NCBI GenBank assembly: GCA_036277075.1
Contig: DASUNQ010000027.1
Location: forward strand, 701 to 64,700
From: Thermoanaerobaculia bacterium
GTDB taxonomy: Bacteria; Acidobacteriota; Thermoanaerobaculia; Multivoradales; UBA5704
Reading direction: 5' to 3'
DNA: 64,000 nt
In this document: positions 261-60,790 of the stretch, piece after piece
How positions within the stretch are numbered: position 1 is the stretch's first letter
How the letters are laid out: each line of letters opens with the position of its first letter
Notes under the pieces: generated by a model
Told to the model about the DNA's origin: nothing
The model's database searches: none
The model's input: the letters and a program-made list of their open reading frames with translations, nothing else
Made by a program: the position numbers and the translations under genes

Positions 261-3200
261 CTACGACCCCGCCTGCTTCTTCTCCCACTCTTCCCGCGAC
301 ATCCAGCTCAGCGCCTTCGCGTTCTTCTCCCGCAACGCTTCGGCCCGCCGCTCGGCCTCCTCCAACCGCTCCTCGAGCACCCCCGCCAGCTCCACCTGCG
401 ACTGCGTCGGCCGCCCCTCGTACGAGTTGACCGATCCGTACAGCAACCCGATCTTCTCGCGGAGCTGCTCCTCCCCGGAGAGCCACCCCCCCTCGCTCGT
501 CGCCACGAGCTCCTTCCGCAGCCCCGCGAGCGACGCGGCCAGCGCCTTCAGCCCCCGCTTCTGCGCCTGCGCCTCCGCGTCCGCCACCGCGTCGGCCAGA
601 TACGTCAGCCGCTCCAGCATTCCGTAGAGCCGCCAGACGAGCTTCTCCTGCGCCGCCCGGTCCTCGGCCGCGTGCCGCGAGCGCGGGTCCGCCACCAGCT
701 CCACCGTTCCCGGATACGTCTGGTCCCCCTTCACCACTTTGACCGTGTACGTCCCCAGCGGCACCCGCGGCCCCAGCATCGCGTACTGGTTCATCACCAG
801 CGAATTCGCCGGCGGCATCTTCGGCGGCTTGGCGCGCATCGGCCAGGCGACGCGGTTGAGCCCCTTCCGCTTGCCCCCCGGGAGCGTCGCGACCCGCTTG
901 CCGGCCTCGTCGTAGACCTCCACCTTGAGGTCGCCGAAGAGGTGCCGCTTTTTGAGGTAGTAGACGATCGTCGCCTGCTCCGAAGGGTTGAAGGCGACGA
1001 ACTCGTCGTCGGCGCCGAAGCTCTGGCCGGCCGACGGGATCATCGCCACCGACGGCCGCGACGAGAGGATCGCCACCTCGGAGTCCAGCGTCTCGCGCGT
1101 GAGCTGCCGCAGCGGCGTGATGTCGTCGAGGATGTAGATGCCGCGCCCGTGGGTGGCGACGATCAGGTCCGACTCCCGCGGGTGGACCACGAGGTCGCGC
1201 ACCGCCACCCGCTGGGGGAAGTTGCCGGTGAAGCGCGCCCAGCGGGCGCCGCCATCCACCGAGACGAAGAGGCCGTCCTCGGTGCCGAGGAAGAGGAGGT
1301 CGCGGTTGGCCGGGTCCTCCTCGACGACGTGGGCGTAGCCCGAGAGCGCGTCGCTACCGAGCGAGGTCCAGCTCTTGCCCGAATCGGTCGTCTTGAAGAC
1401 GTACGTCTCCATGTCGCCGCGGGCGTGGCCGTCGAAGGTGGCGTAGGCGGTCGCCGCGTCGTGCGCCGAGGCCTCGACGTGCGACACCCAGGTGCCCCGC
1501 GGCAATCCCGGCAGGGCGGGGGCGGTGTCGGTCCAGGACTTGCCGCCGTCGCGCGTCACCTGGAGCCGCCCGTCGTCGGTGCCGGCCCAGATGGTCTGCG
1601 GGTCCTTCGGCGACTCGGCGATGGTGTAGATCGTGGTGTGGTTCTCGGCCGTCGAGTTGTCGCGGGTCAGCCCGCCGGACTCGCGCTGCTTCTGCTTGGC
1701 CGGGTCGTTGGTCGTCAGGTCGGGAGAGGCCCGCTCCCAGCTGTCGCCGCGGTCGCGCGAGCGGAAGAGGAACTGCGAGCCGAGGTAGACCGTCCCCTTC
1801 TGGGTCGGCGAGAGGTGGATCGGTGTGTTCCAGTTGAAGCGCAGCTCCCGCTCCCCCTTGCGCGGCTGCGGCTTGATGTCGCGCGCCTCTCCGGTCTCGA
1901 GATTGACCCGGCCGATGTTGCCCCCCTGGTACTCGACGTAGACGTAGTCCGGATCGGCGGCGTCGCGGAAGACGTGGAAGCCGTCGCCGAAGAAGAGGTC
2001 CTTCCAGTCCTTGTTCTCGATGCCGCCCGGGGAGCGCGAGGGCCCGGTCCAGGTGCCGTTGTCCTGCAGGCCGCCGTAGACGTTGTACGGCCATTCGTCG
2101 TCGTAGCTGACCTCGTAGAACTGCGACACCGGCAGCACCTTGGCGAAGCGCCAGCGGTGCGCGCGGTCGTGCGAGACGTAGAGCCCGCCGTCGGTGCCGA
2201 GGAACATCTCGTGCGGGTTCTTGGGGTTGATCCAGAGCGCGTGGTGGTCCGGGTGGACGCCGCCGAAGCCGTGACCGGAGAAGGGGGAGTTGAACGACCT
2301 TCCACCGTCGGTCGAGATGGTGAGGGTGAGCCCCGGCTTGTAGACGTAGTCGAAGTCGGTCGGGTCGACGACGACGTGCGCGAAGTAGAAGGGGCGCGCC
2401 TGGATGTTGAACGAGGAGTTGACCTCCTCCCAGGTGTGGCCGGTGTCGTCGGAGCGGAAGAGGGCGGTCCTCTCCGACTCGACGACGGCGTAGACGACGC
2501 TCGGCCGCGAGGGCGCGACCGCCACCGCGATCCGCCCCTTCTCCCCCTTGGGCAGCCCGTTGTCGAGCTTCTTCCAGGTCTCGCCGCCGTCGCGCGACTG
2601 GTAGAGGGCGCTCCCCTTGCCGCCGGAGTGGAACGACCACGGCGTGCGCCGGAACTGCCACATCCCGGCGTAGAGGACCCGCGGGTCCTGCGGGTCGAGC
2701 GAGAGGTCGGAGCAGCCGGTCCTGCCGTCCACCGCCAGCACCCGCTTCCAGCTCTTGCCGCCGTCGGTCGTCTTGTAGACGCCGCGCTCGTCGTGGTCGT
2801 CCCAGAGGTGCCCGGTGGCGCACACCCAGACCGTCTTGCCGTCCTTCGGGTGGACGGCGATGCCGGCGATGCGCTCGGAGCTCTCGAGCCCCATCCGCTG
2901 CCAGGTCTCGCCGCCGTCGGTCGTCTTGTAGACGCCGTCGCCGACCGAGACGCTGTTGCGGGTGCAGCTTTCGCCGGTCCCCACCCAGACGGTCTTGGGG
3001 TCGCTCGGGTCGACGCGCACCGCGCCGATCGACTGCGCGTGATCGTCGAAGACGGGCTCGAAGGAGACGCCGCCGTCGACCGACTTCCAGACCCCGCCCG
3101 AGGCGGCGCCGACCCAGACCGTCACCGGGTCGTTCGCCACCGCGTCGATGGCGGCGATGCGGCCGCCCATGACCGCCGGCCCGAGGGCGCGGGCCTCGAG

Positions 3201-3347
3201 CCCGCCGAAGGTCGCGGAGTCGATCTCCGGCGGCATCGGCGCCTCGGCGGCGGCCGCGGCCGGCACCGGGTCGGGCGGCTGGGCGCGGGCGGCGCCGGCG
3301 CCGAGCGCCAGCCCGAGGGCGAGCGGGACGAGTGCGCGGCGGGCCAT
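261..3347 (-). CDS. Secreted BNR/Asp-box repeat beta-propeller protein (sortilin/Vps10-like, glycosyl-hydrolase-like), 1028 aa
   Basis: N-terminal signal peptide (MARRALVPLALGLALGAGAARAQ). At least 10 Asp-box motifs S/T-x-D-x-G-x-T/S-W (TTDGGETW, TTDGGKSW, SRDGGETW, STDGGRSF, TRDGGKSW, TTDSGKSW and others). Long ORF with coherent codon usage; the 81..3413 plus-strand ORF is its antisense shadow. Confidence 0.8.
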   Translation of the reverse strand: MARRALVPLALGLALGAGAARAQPPDPVPAAAAAEAPMPPEIDSATFGGLEARALGPAVMGGRIAAIDAVANDPVTVWVGAASGGVWKSVDGGVSFEPVFDDHAQSIGAVRVDPSDPKTVWVGTGESCTRNSVSVGDGVYKTTDGGETWQRMGLESSERIAGIAVHPKDGKTVWVCATGHLWDDHDERGVYKTTDGGKSWKRVLAVDGRTGCSDLSLDPQDPRVLYAGMWQFRRTPWSFHSGGKGSALYQSRDGGETWKKLDNGLPKGEKGRIAVAVAPSRPSVVYAVVESERTALFRSDDTGHTWEEVNSSFNIQARPFYFAHVVVDPTDFDYVYKPGLTLTISTDGGRSFNSPFSGHGFGGVHPDHHALWINPKNPHEMFLGTDGGLYVSHDRAHRWRFAKVLPVSQFYEVSYDDEWPYNVYGGLQDNGTWTGPSRSPGGIENKDWKDLFFGDGFHVFRDAADPDYVYVEYQGGNIGRVNLETGEARDIKPQPRKGERELRFNWNTPIHLSPTQKGTVYLGSQFLFRSRDRGDSWERASPDLTTNDPAKQKQRESGGLTRDNSTAENHTTIYTIAESPKDPQTIWAGTDDGRLQVTRDGGKSWTDTAPALPGLPRGTWVSHVEASAHDAATAYATFDGHARGDMETYVFKTTDSGKSWTSLGSDALSGYAHVVEEDPANRDLLFLGTEDGLFVSVDGGARWARFTGNFPQRVAVRDLVVHPRESDLIVATHGRGIYILDDITPLRQLTRETLDSEVAILSSRPSVAMIPSAGQSFGADDEFVAFNPSEQATIVYYLKKRHLFGDLKVEVYDEAGKRVATLPGGKRKGLNRVAWPMRAKPPKMPPANSLVMNQYAMLGPRVPLGTYTVKVVKGDQTYPGTVELVADPRSRHAAEDRAAQEKLVWRLYGMLERLTYLADAVADAEAQAQKRGLKALAASLAGLRKELVATSEGGWLSGEEQLREKIGLLYGSVNSYEGRPTQSQVELAGVLEERLEEAERRAEALREKNAKALSWMSREEWEKKQAGS

Positions 3348-3348
3348 G

Positions 3349-4092
3349 TCAGCTCGGCTTCGCCGCTTCCTTCGCGGGCATCGCGAAGCGGTCGGCGGCG
3401 ATCTCGGGGTTGATCTCGATTTTCTCGATGACGATCTGCTGGCTGTGCGGCATCCCCTTGGGCTTGATCGCGATCGAGTGCGCCAGCATCAGCCCGCCGA
3501 CCTCCTTGTAGTCGCCGAAGCTGGTCTCCACCTCGACCTCCTGGCCGCGGCGGTTGCTCTTGCCCTCGGCCTTGATCTCGAGGAAGGCGTCGGCGTCGAG
3601 GAAGAGGTTGACGACGTCGCCGTTCTTCTTGGTCACCTTGAGCTGGTGCGCCGGGGTGCCCTCGACGTCCGCCTTACCCACGTACTCGACCTGGTGGCCC
3701 TTCGCCTTGTAGTCGACGAGCGGGCCGTCGATGTCGGCCTGGTCCTCGATCTCCTTGAGGTCCTCGGGCGACATCTTCTCGGGGTCCTTCTTGCCCAGGA
3801 AGGGCATCACCGCCCAGCCGGTCGTGCCGTCGTAGGCCTGGATGCCGGTCATGCCCTGCATGGTGAACTCCATGCGCACGTTGTTGGGGCGTTTGAACTC
3901 GAGGGTCACCGGCATCTCCGTGCCCTGGCCCACCATCTTGCCGGTCATGCGCATGGTCTGGACGGACTGCATCTTCTCGCGCCCGCCGTGCGCCTGGATG
4001 TTCTTCTCGATCAGCTCGTCGGCGGTCTGCGCCTGGGCGAGCGAGCCCACGGCGAAGGCGGCGAGCAGACAGACGAGGTTTCTCCGCAGCAT
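3349..4092 (-). CDS. LolA-like outer-membrane lipoprotein-sorting/carrier family protein, 247 aa
   Basis: Signal peptide (LLAAFAVGSLAQAQ). The size and sequence style resemble LolA-like lipoprotein-sorting proteins. It lies 1 bp upstream of the BNR gene on the same strand, so they are probably an operon. The family assignment is from memory and not computed. Confidence 0.5.
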   Translation of the reverse strand: MLRRNLVCLLAAFAVGSLAQAQTADELIEKNIQAHGGREKMQSVQTMRMTGKMVGQGTEMPVTLEFKRPNNVRMEFTMQGMTGIQAYDGTTGWAVMPFLGKKDPEKMSPEDLKEIEDQADIDGPLVDYKAKGHQVEYVGKADVEGTPAHQLKVTKKNGDVVNLFLDADAFLEIKAEGKSNRRGQEVEVETSFGDYKEVGGLMLAHSIAIKPKGMPHSQQIVIEKIEINPEIAADRFAMPAKEAAKPS

Positions 4093-4163
4093 CGTTTTTC
4101 TCCTCTGGAAGGCTGGATTGCCGTCTACGCGTCGGACGCGTCGGAAGGCGCCGAGTTTACACT

Positions 4164-7100
4164 TTGCGCGCCATGACCAAGCTCTCTTCTCTCGACGCCC
4201 TGCTCCTCGCGGCGTTCCTCGCGCCGCTTCCCGCCGCCGCCGCCATCGACCCGTCGCTCCTCGCCGGCATGAAGGCGCGCTCGATCGGCCCCGCCGCGAT
4301 GAGCGGCCGGGTCGCCGCCGTCGAAGGCGTCCCCTCCGACCCCGGCCAGCTCTGGGTCGGGGCGGCGACCGGCGGCGTCTGGAAGTCGACCGACGGCGGC
4401 CTCACCTTCGCGCCGGTCTTCGACGACCAGCCGGTGGCGGCGATCGGCGCGGTGGCGGTGTCGCGCGTCAACCCGGCGATCGTCTGGGTGGGCACCGGCG
4501 AGGGCAACCCGCGCAACAGCGCCTCGGTGGGCAACGGCGTCTACCGCTCGCTCGACGGCGGCCGCACCTGGAAGCACCTCGGCCTCGAGGCGACCGAGCG
4601 CATCCACCGCATCCTCCTCCACCCGACCGATCCGGACACCGCCTGGGTGGCCGCCCTCGGCCGCGCCTGGGGGGAGAACCCCGAGCGCGGCGTCTTCAAG
4701 ACCACCGACGGCGGCCGCACCTGGGGGAAGGTCCTCTACGTCGACGAGCGCACCGGCGCCGCCGACCTCGCCGCCGACCCGCGCAACCCCGAGAAGCTCT
4801 TCGCCGCGATGTGGGAGTACCGGCGCTGGCCCTGGTTCTTCCGCTCCGGCGGCCCCGGCTCGGGGCTCCACGTCAGCCACGACGGCGGCGCGAGCTGGCG
4901 GCGGGCGACCGAGGCGGACGGCCTGCCGGCCGGCGACCTCGGGCGGATCGGCGTCGCCGTCGCCCCTTCCGACCCGCGCGTCGTCTACGCCCTGGTCGAG
5001 GCGGCGGAGAGCGCCCTCCTGCGCTCGGCCGACGGCGGCCGCACCTGGAAGAAGGTCAACACCAGGAAGGACGTCTCGCCGCGCCCCTTCTACTACGCCG
5101 ACCTGCGGGTGGACCCGGAGAACGCGAACCGCGTCTACCGGCTGGGCGGCGCGCTCGACGTCTCCGACGACGGCGGCAGGACCTGGGAGGCGCTGCTCGG
5201 CTGGGGGAAGGTCCACCCCGACCACCACGCCCTCTGGATCCACCCCGAGGACGGCGGCTTCATGGTCAACGGCAACGACGGCGGCATCGCGGTGACGCGC
5301 GACCGCGGGGCGTCGTGGCGCTTCGTCGGCAACCTCCCGCTCGCCCAGTTCTACCACGTGCGCGTCGACCAGGAGGTGCCCTACAACGTCTACGGCGGCC
5401 TCCAGGACAACGGCTCCTGGAAGGGGCCGAGCGCGGTGTGGGAGAACGCCGGGATGCGCAACCAGCACTGGCAGGAGGTGGCTTTCGGCGACGGCTTCGA
5501 CACCGTGCCCGACCCGCGCGACGCGATGCGCGGCTACGCCATGAGCCAGGAGGGGTACCTGGTGCGCTGGGACCTGCGCACCGGCAAGCGCAAGGACATC
5601 CGTCCGGCGGGCTCGCCCGGCGTGCCGCTGCGCTTCAACTGGAACGCCGGCATCGCCGTCGACCCCTTCGCGCCGGACACGATCTACTTCGGCAGCCAGT
5701 TCGTCCACCGCTCGACCGACCGCGGCGACACCTGGACGACGATCAGCCCCGACCTGACGACCGACCGCAAGGAGTGGCAGCGGCAGCGGGAGAGCGGCGG
5801 CCTCACGCCCGACGTCACCGGGGCCGAGAACTTCACCACGATCATCGCCCTCGCCCCTTCGCCGGTCGAGCGCGGCGTGCTCTGGGCGGGGACCGACGAC
5901 GGGCGCCTGCACGTGACCCGCGACGGCGGCGCGAGCTGGACGAGCGTCGAGAAGAACGTGAGAGGCGTGCCGGCCAACACCTGGATCCCGCACGTCCTCC
6001 CCTCGACGCACGACGCCGGCACCGCCTTCGTCGTCTTCGACGACCACCGGCGCTCGAACTGGACCCCCTACCTCTACCGCACGACCGACTACGGCCGCAC
6101 CTGGACGAGCCTGGCGACCAAGGACCTGCGCGGCTACGCCCTGGCGATCGCGCAGGACGCGGTCGACCCCGACCTCCTCTTCCTCGGCACCGAGTTCGGT
6201 CTCTGGACCTCGCTCGACGGCGGGCGGAGCTGGCTGCCCTGGCGGCACGGCGTGCCGACGGTCTCGGTCATGGACCTCGCCGTCCACCCGCGCGACCACG
6301 ACCTGGTGATCGCCACCCACGGCCGCGCGCTCTACGTCCTCGACGACCTGGCGCCGCTGCGCACGCTCTCGGCCGAGACGCTGCGGGCGCCGCTCCACCT
6401 CTTCCCGGCCTCGCCGGCGGTGCAGCATCAGGTGCGCCAGAGCGGCTCCTCGCGCTTCCCCGGCCACGGCGAGTTCGAGGCGGAGAACGAGCCCTACGGG
6501 GCGGTGCTGACCTATTCGCTCAACGTCGCCGGGCTGCCGCACCCGGACGTCGAGGTCGAGCGCGGGCGCACGGAGGAGGAGCGGGAGAAGGAGCTGGCGC
6601 GGCGGCGGCGCGAGGAGCGGGCGCCGGAGGCCGGCGAGGAGGTGCCGGCGGCGGCGGTCAAGGGTCCGCCGGCCGCGGCCGAGGAGGCCGCCCGGGCGGC
6701 GCCGGAAGGGAAGCCGGGGGAGGGGCCGCAGGTGACGATCGAGGTGCGCGACGCGGAGGGTGGGCTGGTGCGCAGCTTCAAGGGGCCGGCGAAGCTCGGC
6801 GTCAACCGCGCGGTCTGGGACCTCGCGACCGAGGCGCCGAAGTCGCCGTCGACCCAGCCGTCCTGGTGGGGCTCGGGCGGCCCCGAGGCGCTGCCGGGGA
6901 CCTACCAGGTGACGGTCAAGCTCAAGGACCACGAGTCGAGCGGCCAGGTCGAGGTCCTCCCCGACCCGCGGGTGCCCTTCGCCGCCGAGACCCGCCGCGC
7001 CAACTGGGAGGCGCAGCGGCGCGCCGGGCGGCTCCAAGAGGCCGTCGACGCCGCGGTCGAGCGGGTGCGGCGGACGCGCGCCGACCTCGACACCCTGGTG

Positions 7101-7499
7101 GCGCGCGCCAAGCCGCGGGAGAAGGAGGAGGAGAGCACCGAGGCCAAGGCCGCGCACGAGGCGCACAAGGAGCTGGCGAAGGAGGCCAAGCGGGTCAAAG
7201 ACGCGCTCGAGAAGGTGGAGCTCCGCCTTTGGCAGACCGACGAGCCGAAGGGCATCCTCCCGCCCGACGACGCCTTCTCGCAGATCCAGTACGCCCGCTT
7301 CGCCGTCGCCTCTTCCTGGGACGCTCCGACGGCGGCGCAGACGGCGTACCTGGAGCAGGCCGCGACGACGCTGGCCGGGGCGCTCGGCGATCTCAACAAG
7401 CTCTTGACCGGGGAGGTCGCGGCATTCAAGAGGCGGCTCCAGGAGACCGACCTCCGGCTCCTGCCGGAGTTGCCGCCCATCGAGGTGCAAGAGGACTAG
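4164..7499 (+). CDS. Secreted BNR/Asp-box repeat beta-propeller protein (sortilin/Vps10-like), paralog of 261..3347, 1111 aa
   Basis: Signal peptide. Asp-box motifs (STDGGLTF, SLDGGRTW, TTDGGRTW, SHDGGASW, SADGGRTW, SDDGGRTW, TRDGGASW, TTDYGRTW, SLDGGRSW). The N-terminal 600 aa are collinear with the minus-strand paralog (GGVWKSxDGG, VWVGTGE, NGVY, HPDHHALWI and others). The C-terminus is a Glu/Lys-rich coiled-coil-like tail. Confidence 0.8.
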   Translation: MRAMTKLSSLDALLLAAFLAPLPAAAAIDPSLLAGMKARSIGPAAMSGRVAAVEGVPSDPGQLWVGAATGGVWKSTDGGLTFAPVFDDQPVAAIGAVAVSRVNPAIVWVGTGEGNPRNSASVGNGVYRSLDGGRTWKHLGLEATERIHRILLHPTDPDTAWVAALGRAWGENPERGVFKTTDGGRTWGKVLYVDERTGAADLAADPRNPEKLFAAMWEYRRWPWFFRSGGPGSGLHVSHDGGASWRRATEADGLPAGDLGRIGVAVAPSDPRVVYALVEAAESALLRSADGGRTWKKVNTRKDVSPRPFYYADLRVDPENANRVYRLGGALDVSDDGGRTWEALLGWGKVHPDHHALWIHPEDGGFMVNGNDGGIAVTRDRGASWRFVGNLPLAQFYHVRVDQEVPYNVYGGLQDNGSWKGPSAVWENAGMRNQHWQEVAFGDGFDTVPDPRDAMRGYAMSQEGYLVRWDLRTGKRKDIRPAGSPGVPLRFNWNAGIAVDPFAPDTIYFGSQFVHRSTDRGDTWTTISPDLTTDRKEWQRQRESGGLTPDVTGAENFTTIIALAPSPVERGVLWAGTDDGRLHVTRDGGASWTSVEKNVRGVPANTWIPHVLPSTHDAGTAFVVFDDHRRSNWTPYLYRTTDYGRTWTSLATKDLRGYALAIAQDAVDPDLLFLGTEFGLWTSLDGGRSWLPWRHGVPTVSVMDLAVHPRDHDLVIATHGRALYVLDDLAPLRTLSAETLRAPLHLFPASPAVQHQVRQSGSSRFPGHGEFEAENEPYGAVLTYSLNVAGLPHPDVEVERGRTEEEREKELARRRREERAPEAGEEVPAAAVKGPPAAAEEAARAAPEGKPGEGPQVTIEVRDAEGGLVRSFKGPAKLGVNRAVWDLATEAPKSPSTQPSWWGSGGPEALPGTYQVTVKLKDHESSGQVEVLPDPRVPFAAETRRANWEAQRRAGRLQEAVDAAVERVRRTRADLDTLVARAKPREKEEESTEAKAAHEAHKELAKEAKRVKDALEKVELRLWQTDEPKGILPPDDAFSQIQYARFAVASSWDAPTAAQTAYLEQAATTLAGALGDLNKLLTGEVAAFKRRLQETDLRLLPELPPIEVQED

Positions 7500-7811
7500 C
7501 GGCGGGGGATCGCGCCGCAGGGGTGCGGATACACCCCGCCGCCGCGGAAATGCACGCCGCAGGCACGGAGGATCGATCCGCCGCGGCGGAGGTGCACGCC
7601 GCCGCGCCGGCGGTGCACCCCGCCGACGATGCGACGACATCCTCCGGACCTCCGGCGGCATCCGGAGGCGCGGAGGAAACATCCCGACTTCCTCCGGAGT
7701 GCATAGACGATGCAGAATGGTGTATTCTCGTGATGCCGGGAGGCACCACAGGTCCGGCGGAGTGTAGAGCAGCTGCCGGGACGTGTATTTCCACCTCCCA
7801 GGGGAGATCCG

Positions 7812-8039
7812 ATGCGCACGAACATCCATCTCGACGACGACCTGCTCGCCCGCTGTATGCGGTGCACCGGTCTCAAGACGAAGCGGGCGGTGGTGGAGGA
7901 GGGGCTGCGGGCGCTCCTGCGCCTGGACGGCCAGCGGGAGGTGCGCGACCTGCGCGGCCGCCTGCGCTGGGAGGACCGCGCGACGCCGGCGGCTCCGTCC
8001 GCCCCGCGGCCGGGGAGCGGCGATGCGGACCCTCGTTGA
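7812..8039 (+). CDS. vapB: VapB-type antitoxin (type II TA), 75 aa
   Basis: The N-terminus MRTNIHLDDDLLARCMRCTGLKTKRAVVEEGLRALL is typical of a VapB/Rv0623-like antitoxin. GGGGAGA RBS lies 5-6 nt upstream of the ATG. It overlaps the downstream PIN gene by 17 bp in a different frame. Confidence 0.7.
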   Translation: MRTNIHLDDDLLARCMRCTGLKTKRAVVEEGLRALLRLDGQREVRDLRGRLRWEDRATPAAPSAPRPGSGDADPR

Positions 8040-8436
8040 CGCCTCGGTCTGGACCGCCTACTTCAACGGCGCCCGCTCGCCCCTCGTCGATTGGCTCGAC
8101 GCCTCCCTCGGCCGCGCCGCCCTGGTCGTCGCCGACCTGACCCTCGTCGAGGTCCTCCGCGGCATCGCCGACGAGGCCGAGCAGGAGCGCGCCCGCGCCG
8201 CCCTGCTGAAGTTCTCCATCGTCGAGACCGCCGGCCGCGACCTCGCCCTCCAGGCCGCCGACTACCTCCGCGCCCTCCGCACCGCCGCCGCCCTCGAGCC
8301 CCCCCTCCCCCAAGCCCTCATCGCCACCGCCTGCCTCGCCGGCGGCCTCCAGCTCCTCCACCAGGACCCAGCCTACGAGCCGTTCGAGCAGCACCTCGGG
8401 CTGGCGACGCCCGGTGCGGTGGTGGAGGTCTGGTGA
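8023..8436 (+). CDS. vapC: VapC PIN-domain ribonuclease toxin, about 137 aa
   Basis: MRTLVDASVWTAYF...LVVADLTLVEVLRG...LIATACLAGGLQLLHQD: PIN-domain pattern with the acidic residues (D6, E, D) at the expected spacing. It directly follows and overlaps the vapB-like gene. Confidence 0.75.
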   Translation: MRTLVDASVWTAYFNGARSPLVDWLDASLGRAALVVADLTLVEVLRGIADEAEQERARAALLKFSIVETAGRDLALQAADYLRALRTAAALEPPLPQALIATACLAGGLQLLHQDPAYEPFEQHLGLATPGAVVEVW

Positions 8437-60499: not shown

Positions 60500-60790
60500 C
60501 GCTGCGAGATCCCTTCCGGCGGGCGGCGGAGACGGATCTCCGGGGCCCCGAGATCTATCTCGAGCGCCCCGAGATACATCTTCGGCACCCGGAGATACAT
60601 CTCGGACCGTCCAAGATCCATCTCCGGCTCGCGAAGATACATCTCGGGCCGCCCAAAATACATCTTCGGGACCGGAAGATCGATCTTGGTGCCCGGGAGA
60701 TTCATCTCGAGGCGCCCGAGATTCATCTCCGGCACTCCGAGATCTATCTTCCGCGGCGGAAGATCGGTCGCGAGCGGTATGGTGCCCGTC
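60500..60790. repeat. Array of about 12-13 tandem 21-bp units, each with a GAGAT-NN-ATCTC palindromic core, in the divergent intergenic region
   Basis: The GAGAT/AAGAT half-sites begin at 60506, 60528, 60550, 60571, 60592, 60613, 60634, 60655, 60676, 60697, 60718, 60739 and 60760. The phasing is exactly 21 bp. Example units are CGAGATCTATCTCG, GGAGATACATCTCG and GAAGATCGATCTTG. There are no unique spacers, so this is not CRISPR. Confidence 0.7.

Follow-up and report, generated by a model that had tools for sequence, protein, structure and literature searches.

Here, we analyzed a 64,000-nucleotide stretch of DNA from a Thermoanaerobaculia bacterium of the phylum Acidobacteriota (positions 701 to 64,700 of contig DASUNQ010000027.1, assembly GCA_036277075.1; referred to below as the window), focusing on the gap between two divergent genes that encode a tricorn-type protease and a beta-lactamase-like lipoprotein. 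Most of this gap is taken up by a head-to-tail array of 21-bp units, each with a short inverted repeat, RAGAT-NN-ATCTY, at its core (Table 1). A previous, sequence-only reading had described a 368-bp divergent gap, the two flanking genes and a perfectly phased 21-bp array of about 12 palindromic sites, and all of this is borne out: the list of open reading frames (ORFs) gives the same gap, Pfam finds tricorn domains on one side and PF00144 on the other, and all 12 units share one 21-bp register with no phase slip. The array comes close to the hydrolase gene, whose ATG lies 29 bp past the last, degenerate unit and 57 bp past the last intact core.

Table 1. Coordinates of the array and of the features around it (positions of the window)
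Feature	Start	End	Strand	Description
Divergent intergenic region	60440	60807		368 bp; holds the array; from the ORF list and Pfam on the flanking ORFs
Array, 12 head-to-tail units of 21 bp	60527	60778		Consensus CGGAGAT-NN-ATCTCCGGCGCC; core 12 bp, GC-rich spacer 9 bp
Ten best-kept units	60548	60757		Nine with the exact core; the unit at 60653 has AAAAT
First unit, degenerate, in phase	60527	60547		GGAGACGGATCTCC
Last unit, degenerate	60758	60778		GGAAGATCGGTCGC; left half-site retained, right half gone
Lone GAGAT half-site	60506	60510		2 bp off phase; outside the array
Tricorn-type protease gene	57050	60439	-	Pfam PD40, Tricorn_C1, PDZ_Tricorn, Peptidase_S41; 87 bp between its start and the array
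PF00144 serine-hydrolase (beta-lactamase-like) lipoprotein gene	60808	61944	+	From the ORF list and Pfam
84-codon ORF crossing the array	60472	60726	-	Predicted by automatic gene callers; judged spurious

The RAGAT half-sites start at 60550, 60571, 60592, 60613, 60634, 60676, 60697, 60718, 60739 and 60760, with a degenerate GAGAC at 60529 and AAAAT in place of RAGAT at 60655, and an ATCTY partner lies exactly 7 bp 3′ of each RAGAT start. This gives nine exact RAGAT-NN-ATCTY sites and three near matches. The pattern RAGATNNATCTY occurs nine times in the window, always within the array (expected in shuffles, 0.05; maximum, 1), and self-identity at a lag of 21 bp reaches 0.67, compared to 0.24 to 0.38 at the surrounding lags (18 to 24 bp) and to a window mean of 0.35. 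TRF reports a period of 21 bp with 9.9 copies, plus a higher-order period of 42 bp, and the unit consensus across the array, whose region has a GC content of 60 to 66%, is CGGAGATnnATCTCCGGCGCC. At this resolution, the finer claims of the sequence-only reading hold in part. The half-sites it placed from 60550 to 60760 are in register, but the one at 60506 is 2 bp off phase and the next starts at 60529, not 60528; of its two perfect palindromes, AAGATCGATCTT truly is one, while CGAGATCTATCTCG has perfect arms around a nonpalindromic CT center; and its 12 sites include a first and a last unit that are degenerate. A consensus scan of the intergenic region found no sigma-70-like promoter and no intrinsic terminator.

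Core and spacer differ in how well they are kept. The ten specified positions of the core have a pairwise identity of 0.83 among the window units, the spacer one of 0.48 and the central dinucleotide one of 0.32, and the information content per position is 1.64 bits in the core, 0.92 in the spacer and 0.42 at the center. The GC content is 0.34 in the core and 0.89 in the spacer, with 72% in the genome of the window. Two independent Logan assemblies reproduce the array: contig L001 is identical to the window, and contig L002, which represents a diverged strain, also has 12 units, so that the comparison of array length between strains proposed in the sequence-only reading yields the same number throughout. 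Within the array, L002 differs from the window by seven substitutions and one 1-bp deletion, and the 9-bp spacers contain all eight differences, the 12-bp cores being free of them (P = 0.0011, assuming uniform positions); L002 also carries a 15-bp insertion right after the last unit. An assembly artifact is ruled out, because the independent Logan assemblies agree and the closed long-read genome of a relative bears similar arrays. An AT-rich motif that stays in register in a very GC-rich genome while its surroundings drift indicates selection on both core and spacing. On a larger scale, the G-A-G-A-T and A-T-C-T-C positions are conserved at 79 to 98% in 137 units from Thermoanaerobaculia/Acidobacteriota loci, with both half-sites equally conserved and a symmetric position weight matrix, and the core stays RAGAT/ATCTY across 36 to 75% GC, the synonymous alternatives GAA, AAA, CTG and TTR never being seen.

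The array is noncoding, as the sequence-only reading had judged. All its frames are open merely since the 21-bp unit has no stop codons; the GC content at third codon positions (GC3) is 0.37 to 0.74 in every frame, compared to 0.9 to 0.98 in the neighboring genes; and the frames use the rare codons ATA, CTT and AAA. No Pfam family was matched by any frame of this array or of the other arrays searched, several arrays being covered in all frames. The 84-codon ORF, which is also called in L001, had a near-identical strain copy as its sole relative in a word-indexed search of 5.8 billion proteins, and the 1-bp deletion in L002 breaks its frame and truncates its product. A phmmer search of 1.84 billion representatives gave 125 matches to the heptad translation that a 21-bp period produces: the strong matches are to giant proteins whose TELDLTA-type heptads are unrelated, and the remainder, some 20 small ORFs, were evidently predicted on arrays like this one. 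The giant proteins (1,000 to 6,900 amino acids, with dozens of such heptads) match frame a purely via [EK]-[ILM]-x-L, and one match, P0002, looks eukaryotic (NACHT-like, Asn-rich). Stop codons occur in all six frames of the arrays at loci L095 and L116. Neither of the two outcomes that the sequence-only reading had set against its own interpretation, a conserved heptad-repeat gene and an assembly artifact, was thus found.

That reading had also asked whether the unit is unique, and the answer is a dispersed repeat family. Scanning one genome per GTDB species with two cores 21 bp apart as the query, we found at least 115 loci, in which chains were counted with one mismatch permitted per core. 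Among the matches listed, at least 33 in-phase chains have 5 or more units and at least 17 have 8 or more, the longest having 14; block shuffles of the same DNA contain no chains of 5 or more units. The spacing between neighboring cores in these loci is 21 bp in 313 cases, 42 bp in 30, 20 bp in 3 and 22 bp in 1 (of about 360). The carriers include (i) the closed Acidobacteriota genome OY969474.1, with at least 10 loci over 5.4 Mb; (ii) the Thermoanaerobaculia metagenome-assembled genome (MAG) DATLOC01, with at least 8, and two further Thermoanaerobaculia MAGs, SMAG_U2854 (L085, L113) and MAG140 (L110); (iii) several Verrucomicrobiota MAGs (L006, L012, L049, L054, L080, L101, L105, L114, L115); (iv) four Bacteroidota MAGs of 36 to 40% GC (L041, L056, L061, L108); and (v) the MAG of a spore-forming member of the Bacillota, JAEXFN01, with at least 9. 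The sequence-only treatment of the array as a local operator for one gene pair is not supported by this result, as the same core and phase recur at many unlinked intergenic sites in four phyla, beside unrelated genes. Outside the carriers, most two-unit matches arise by chance or belong to features of another kind. In Macrococcus and Ruoffia isolates, they are not arrays but bidirectional intrinsic terminators (L024, 7063-7104; L032, 4552-4593; L084, 7485-7526; L029, 1534-1575; L060, 7513-7554), whose 13- to 15-bp stems contain AGATGCATCT, as in AAAAGATGCATCTCA-loop-TGAGATGCATCTTTT. Among 2.9 million viral contigs, there were 25 two- or three-unit matches and no array, and a BLAST search against 72,556 plasmids gave no match.

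Species with flanking proteins of 87 to 97% identity keep their arrays at orthologous sites (L009/L113, with 10 units each; L005/L013; L011/L058+L034/L085; L080/L105). Copy number varies between species (7 versus 12, 8 versus 10), and higher-order blocks of 42 and 84 bp are visible. With 12 units in both strains of the window array and differences appearing between species, the fast phase variation considered in the sequence-only reading is not what we see. The Thermoanaerobaculia arrays have no terminal repeats, target duplications or common flanks.

Several arrays come with additional elements. In the Bacillota MAG JAEXFN01, they carry a conserved one-sided module, GGGGATAAG.GAGT followed by a small hairpin and then GATGAAA (L086, 2812-2950; L097, 256-380; L078, 5345-5400; L116, 3620-3665, reverse; left flanks of L052 and L038); the hairpin shows compensatory changes (CCGG..CCGG, CTGG..CCAG, CCCG..CGGG), some copies add a 33-nucleotide hairpin, and the array in this genome belongs to a larger repeated element. 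A Bacteroidota array at L061 (2015-2232 and 3800-3914) is split by an insertion sequence (IS)-like element of ∼1.55 kb (about 2237-3793) with inverted ends GTCCTGAAATAGGTTTACACA and TGTGTAAACTATTTTCAGGAC. At L009 (4340-4731) and L089 (about 2400-2480, reverse), which belong to one genome, the arrays lie ∼30 bp before the same ribosome-binding region and paralogous ORF starts (MPTNLSSTADKFKTWNT and MPTKPSSEALRLSTWNT, the L089 copy being truncated); since they share this downstream gene start, array and adjacent gene start were duplicated together. Other intergenic 21-bp arrays have other cores: CCAAGC-TGTGAT-GCTTGG at L124 (2008-2274; 12.7 copies), beside a hydrolase homologue with 75% identity; ACTTG-GG-CAAGT at L041 (7780-8000; 10.5 copies) in a Bacteroidota MAG; and TTCAGT-N-ACTGAA at L074 (7629-7901) and L097 (5427-5596) in the Bacillota MAG. 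A short dyad repeated every 21 bp may thus be a general design that comes in several specificities, which would fit a family of diversified DNA-binding proteins.

The family arrays are intergenic, except for the coding repeat L031, which we set aside. Their neighbors are ordinary, unrelated genes, among them fbp (fructose-1,6-bisphosphatase), rpsU (ribosomal protein S21), mutS2, uvrB, mgsA and pfl (pyruvate formate-lyase), as well as genes for RNase III, a solute-binding protein, proteins sorted by the type IX secretion system (T9SS), DinB-family proteins and RnfD-like proteins. All-against-all BLAST and Pfam searches of 106 flanking ORFs found no common family besides the orthologous pairs. 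In the window and at L009, L020 and L089, the array ends 29 to 38 bp from a start codon, and the Bacteroidota arrays lie immediately upstream of a canonical TAnnTTTG −7 box, which itself precedes the start codon. In the Thermoanaerobaculia group, arrays are found directly upstream of the toxin-antitoxin (TA) genes vapBC (L089, 1658-2732; L095, 5444-6401); in the same group, an array lies directly upstream of a HicB-like antitoxin gene (L010, 5984-6529) and another ∼0.8 kb from mazE (L110, 5739-6984). These cases are a lead toward a possible enrichment of TA loci next to arrays.

Within the window, a second intergenic tract with a 21-bp period lies at 7511-7790 (lag-21 identity, 0.59; TRF period 21/42 at 7532-7625), 20 bp before a vapB-vapC pair (7812-8039 and 8023-8433; NCBIfam VapC, E = 1e-28). 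Its boxes resemble GC-drifted versions of the core (GGAGGTGCACGCC), so that the tract is probably a decayed array, and it looks as an unconstrained copy would. The window also has two large, divergent, paralogous genes with Sortilin-Vps10/BNR repeats (264-3488, minus strand; 3897-7496, plus strand), the second of which is 76% identical over 235 amino acids to a gene of the Thermoanaerobaculia MAG140 (L110). Beside the array itself, the tricorn gene has a GC3 of 0.98 and GAGGAG upstream of its GTG start. The hydrolase is annotated at NCBI as a protein of 318 amino acids that starts 60 codons further downstream; a start at the upstream ATG (60808) is more likely, because it gives a 378-amino-acid form whose lipoprotein-type signal peptide (LLIGAGSC) is kept in orthologues (LITLGTGC). 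A dinucleotide wedge model predicts the window array to be more curved than all 120 control segments of the window (0.836 versus a minimum of 0.867), with a peak at a period of 21; intrinsic curvature as a property of the family was rejected, as L012, L108 and L110 are predicted to be straight.

We favor, tentatively and with slightly less than even confidence, the view that the array is a DNA-level track that offers many sites on one helix face to a symmetric dimeric DNA-binding protein. At the sequence level, it has the features expected of a phased dyad operator array, namely, dyad sites, conserved half-sites, a free center and spacer, and helical phasing. The sequence-only reading had proposed an array of sites for a dimeric regulator, and its prediction agrees with the two-turn spacing, the conserved cores and the drifting spacers. 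What the sequences show is the phasing, the constrained core, the lack of coding and the family; a binding protein, its dimeric state, its filament and any influence on transcription are inferred. Each 21-bp unit would present one dimer with the short inverted repeat, often widened to sGAGAT-NN-ATCTCs, and the two-turn spacing would place about 10 to 12 dimers on one face of the helix, where neighboring dimers could touch and build a cooperative nucleoprotein filament of ∼250 bp. Such a track would span from ∼87 bp upstream of the tricorn start to ∼30 to 57 bp upstream of the hydrolase start, so that the filament would cover or abut both divergent promoters and would probably set their activity. 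As this locus belongs to a family of dispersed arrays, the gene of the binder would be expected in another place and its product would work in trans on many sites. That the dyad would be read in the duplex is suggested by the units themselves: pairs outside the core show no covariation among the 137 units (pairs 4-17 and 3-18, 0.50 and 0.37 observed versus 0.47 and 0.38 expected), and the central dinucleotide is seldom self-complementary in the Thermoanaerobaculia/Acidobacteriota units (0.05 versus 0.31 expected). Together with the equal half-sites, this lack of covariation favors, on sequence grounds, duplex recognition by a symmetric protein over hairpin stability.

Known systems provide partial precedents for such a track. 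At the fha and ptx promoters of Bordetella, the NarL/FixJ-type regulator BvgA binds inverted heptad-like half-sites in a 7-2-7 geometry, with successive dimers ∼21 to 22 bp apart on one helix face in a row that reaches the −35 region. The present array likewise has inverted half-sites and dyads spaced 21 bp apart on one face. However, BvgA rows comprise 3 to ∼6 dimers, with one strong and several weaker sites, at specific virulence promoters and under a known regulator, whereas the arrays described here have 10 to 14 equally good sites and no cognate regulator and occur at dozens of unlinked loci in several phyla. Cooperative binding to short boxes, palindromic or in tandem, is also known from ribbon-helix-helix (RHH) proteins, for example, MetJ, Arc, omega and ParR. 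The array resembles the parC sites of ParR (pSK41, R1), the omega heptads of pSM19035 and the met-boxes of MetJ in its head-to-tail short dyad or tandem boxes; in those systems, cooperative binding leads to a continuous protein-DNA superstructure, and the parC repeats of pSK41 are ∼20 bp long. Yet, RHH centromeres and MetJ arrays adjoin the par or regulator genes of their own systems and are found on plasmids or at a few operons, while the arrays found here are chromosomal, dispersed, without par genes and absent from the plasmid and viral collections searched.

Several observations weigh against a protein-binding track. No binding protein was identified, and Pfam found no regulator gene, and no rep, par or integrase gene, among the ORFs that flank the window array. 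The flanking genes of the family have no functional theme and hence form no evident classical regulon, and some arrays seem to lie between convergent genes (L078, L080/L105 and L116, by rough ORF calls). The half-site centers are merely 7 bp apart, which is unusual for helix-turn-helix dimers. These lineages also have 21-bp arrays built on different palindromes (L124, L041, L074/L097), and what all arrays share may be the 21-bp period and not the RAGAT-NN-ATCTY core. Arrays can also decay, as at 7511-7790, so not all copies are maintained. Finally, both the tricorn neighbor and the array are absent from hydrolase orthologues of ∼70% identity; these orthologues have other neighbors, and on a deeper scale the array at the window locus is young. 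This comparison covered two Thermoanaerobaculia MAG loci as well as relatives of the hydrolase from metagenomes, and it offered no alignable empty site from which insertion borders could be read.

The main rival, unlikely but to be taken seriously, is a selfish or near-neutral dispersed repeat of the type of repetitive extragenic palindromic (REP) sequences, bacterial interspersed mosaic elements (BIMEs) or minisatellites. A trans-acting recombinase or transposase that recognizes the palindrome, or else slippage, would seed intergenic sites and expand them by tandem duplication, and the core would be kept for propagation rather than for the host. Much of the distribution of the family fits this picture: several arrays per genome beside unrelated genes (OY969474.1, DATLOC01 and JAEXFN01), 42- and 84-bp periods with near-identical units (L012, L041, L101) that denote recent block duplication, different copy numbers in close species, a decayed copy within the window, the conserved modules that flank the Bacillota arrays, an IS-like element within one array, as known from REPs, and the frequency of arrays at MAG contig ends. 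REPs and BIMEs are indeed similar in being short extragenic palindromes in regular clusters, in any type of intergenic region and targeted by ISs; they occur in many copies per genome, and the arrays number at least 8 to 10 in each of three genomes. However, REPs are hairpins of 20 to 40 nucleotides that bear a GTAG/CGTC tag and switch orientation within BIMEs; they are species specific and tied to REP-associated tyrosine transposases (RAYTs). The dyad described here is 12 to 16 bp long, has a strict 21-bp head-to-tail period and keeps the same core in four phyla. The GTAG/CGTC tag is absent from the unit consensus of the window and from the units of other lineages, no transposase family (RAYT included) was found among the 106 flanking ORFs, and the covariation expected of hairpins is lacking. 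The missing terminal repeats, target duplications and common flanks of the Thermoanaerobaculia arrays further argue against mobility, as do the absence of arrays from the viral contigs and plasmids searched and a strict phase that has no obvious role in mobility, and old arrays hold their cores as their spacers diverge.

An RNA-level element is less probable, and we consider it improbable overall. The array would be transcribed as part of a 5′ or 3′ untranslated region or as an intercistronic spacer and form a row of hairpins (e.g., CCGAGA-UACA-UCUCGG) that would stabilize the mRNA, block exonucleases or bind an RNA-binding protein. The array folds far better than shuffles (−158 versus −129 kcal/mol; z = −5.7), several arrays end 20 to 38 bp before a start codon and leave scant room for a promoter, and hairpin modules flank the arrays of the Bacillota MAG. 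Yet, the folding score is uninformative, because any array of palindromes folds strongly by default, and covariation is absent beyond the invariant core. In AT-rich genomes, the hairpins would be marginal, with ∼5 A-U-rich pairs, and in the Bacteroidota the array lies upstream of the promoter −7 box and hence outside that mRNA. The units are symmetric and have no strand preference; Rfam gave chance-level matches only on the window (E = 0.17 to 0.72) and none, at the gathering threshold, at the arrays of 18 loci.

The adjacency of TA genes raises the alternative of an extended operator for RHH antitoxins or TA complexes such as VapBC, in which chains of VapB-VapC would polymerize along the DNA and arrays away from TA genes would be extra targets or decoys. 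The arrays upstream of vapBC (L089, L095) and of the HicB-like gene (L010), the array near mazE (L110) and the decayed tract before vapB-vapC in the window point in this direction. However, no TA gene lies near the array studied here, nor near most arrays; the adjacent antitoxins belong to different families and yet the core is identical; the TA loci have no DNA similarity to each other; and the adjacency is a set of individual cases rather than a quantified enrichment. We regard a TA operator as quite improbable.

Two further readings, both largely refuted, are very improbable. Iterons and type Ib/II centromeres typically have ∼20-bp tandem repeats that carry a dyad, and the Rep-binding iterons of plasmids and phages (19- to 22-bp repeats; the lambda origin has four dyad iterons) share with the array the phased repeats of ∼21 to 22 bp, which there nucleate a protein oligomer; but iterons are mostly direct repeats, 3 to 7 in number, and are accompanied by a rep gene, DnaA boxes and an AT-rich region for unwinding, which the window array lacks. 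An iteron-like element, as suggested in the sequence-only reading, or a parC/parS-like centromere of an integrated plasmid or phage is contradicted by the absence of rep, par and integrase genes alongside (no par-type domain occurs at the window locus or among the most frequent Pfam families of the 106 flanking ORFs), by the many dispersed chromosomal copies beside housekeeping genes and by the lack of any array in the viral contigs and plasmids searched, just as the three assemblies that agree independently contradict an artifact. A genuine small heptad-repeat protein gene (x-P-E-[IM]-x-L-x in frame a, x-D-x-S-x in frame b) could account for the 84- and 163-codon ORFs predicted at the array, the 125 proteins with similar heptads and the one open frame of most arrays, but there is no native codon usage (GC3 well under the genome norm, rare codons), no conserved open frame (truncation in L002, stops in L095 and L116) and no homologue family (no Pfam match; phmmer matches mainly to giant unrelated proteins or to ORFs of similar arrays), and the conservation is palindromic and at the nucleotide level. 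The sequence-only reading was also right that this is not CRISPR: the array shares with CRISPR its regularly spaced short palindromic repeats, but CRISPR has repeats of 23 to 47 bp and unique spacers of about that length, whereas the 9-bp intervals here are GC-rich variants of one consensus within a 21-bp period, and no cas genes and no leader are present at the window locus. The array thus lacks the 20- to 40-nucleotide hairpin and the tag that mark REPs/BIMEs, as well as the defining features of iterons, par centromeres, CRISPR and heptad-repeat proteins.

No Rfam, Pfam or NCBIfam entry describes these arrays, and a full-text literature search found no description of them, although the subscription literature could still hold one. 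At present, the arrays are misannotated as small hypothetical proteins, and MAG assemblies break at them; as minisatellites, they could be used to type strains, and a two-turn array with up to 14 identical dyads would be a natural scaffold for synthetic biology once its binder is known. A bolder extension of the binding-track view, which we consider rather doubtful, is that the family constitutes a previously undescribed, cross-phylum class of "satellite-like" chromosomal tracks, dispersed and made of 5 to 14 palindromic boxes at exact two-turn intervals, on which a conserved trans-acting protein—possibly an RHH-type antitoxin or TA complex, or an unrecognized nucleoid protein—polymerizes. If a protein does polymerize on them, the tracks would represent a novel, widespread class of cis-elements in phyla that abound in soil and gut but have been little studied, placed directly upstream of housekeeping genes (fbp, rpsU) and of secreted hydrolases, and would define a regulatory or architectural system without a counterpart in model bacteria. 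Such a class would provide genome-wide promoter control or chromosome organization in Acidobacteriota, Verrucomicrobiota, Bacteroidota and others, and there would be sister families that keep the 21-bp period but have different palindromes as cores.

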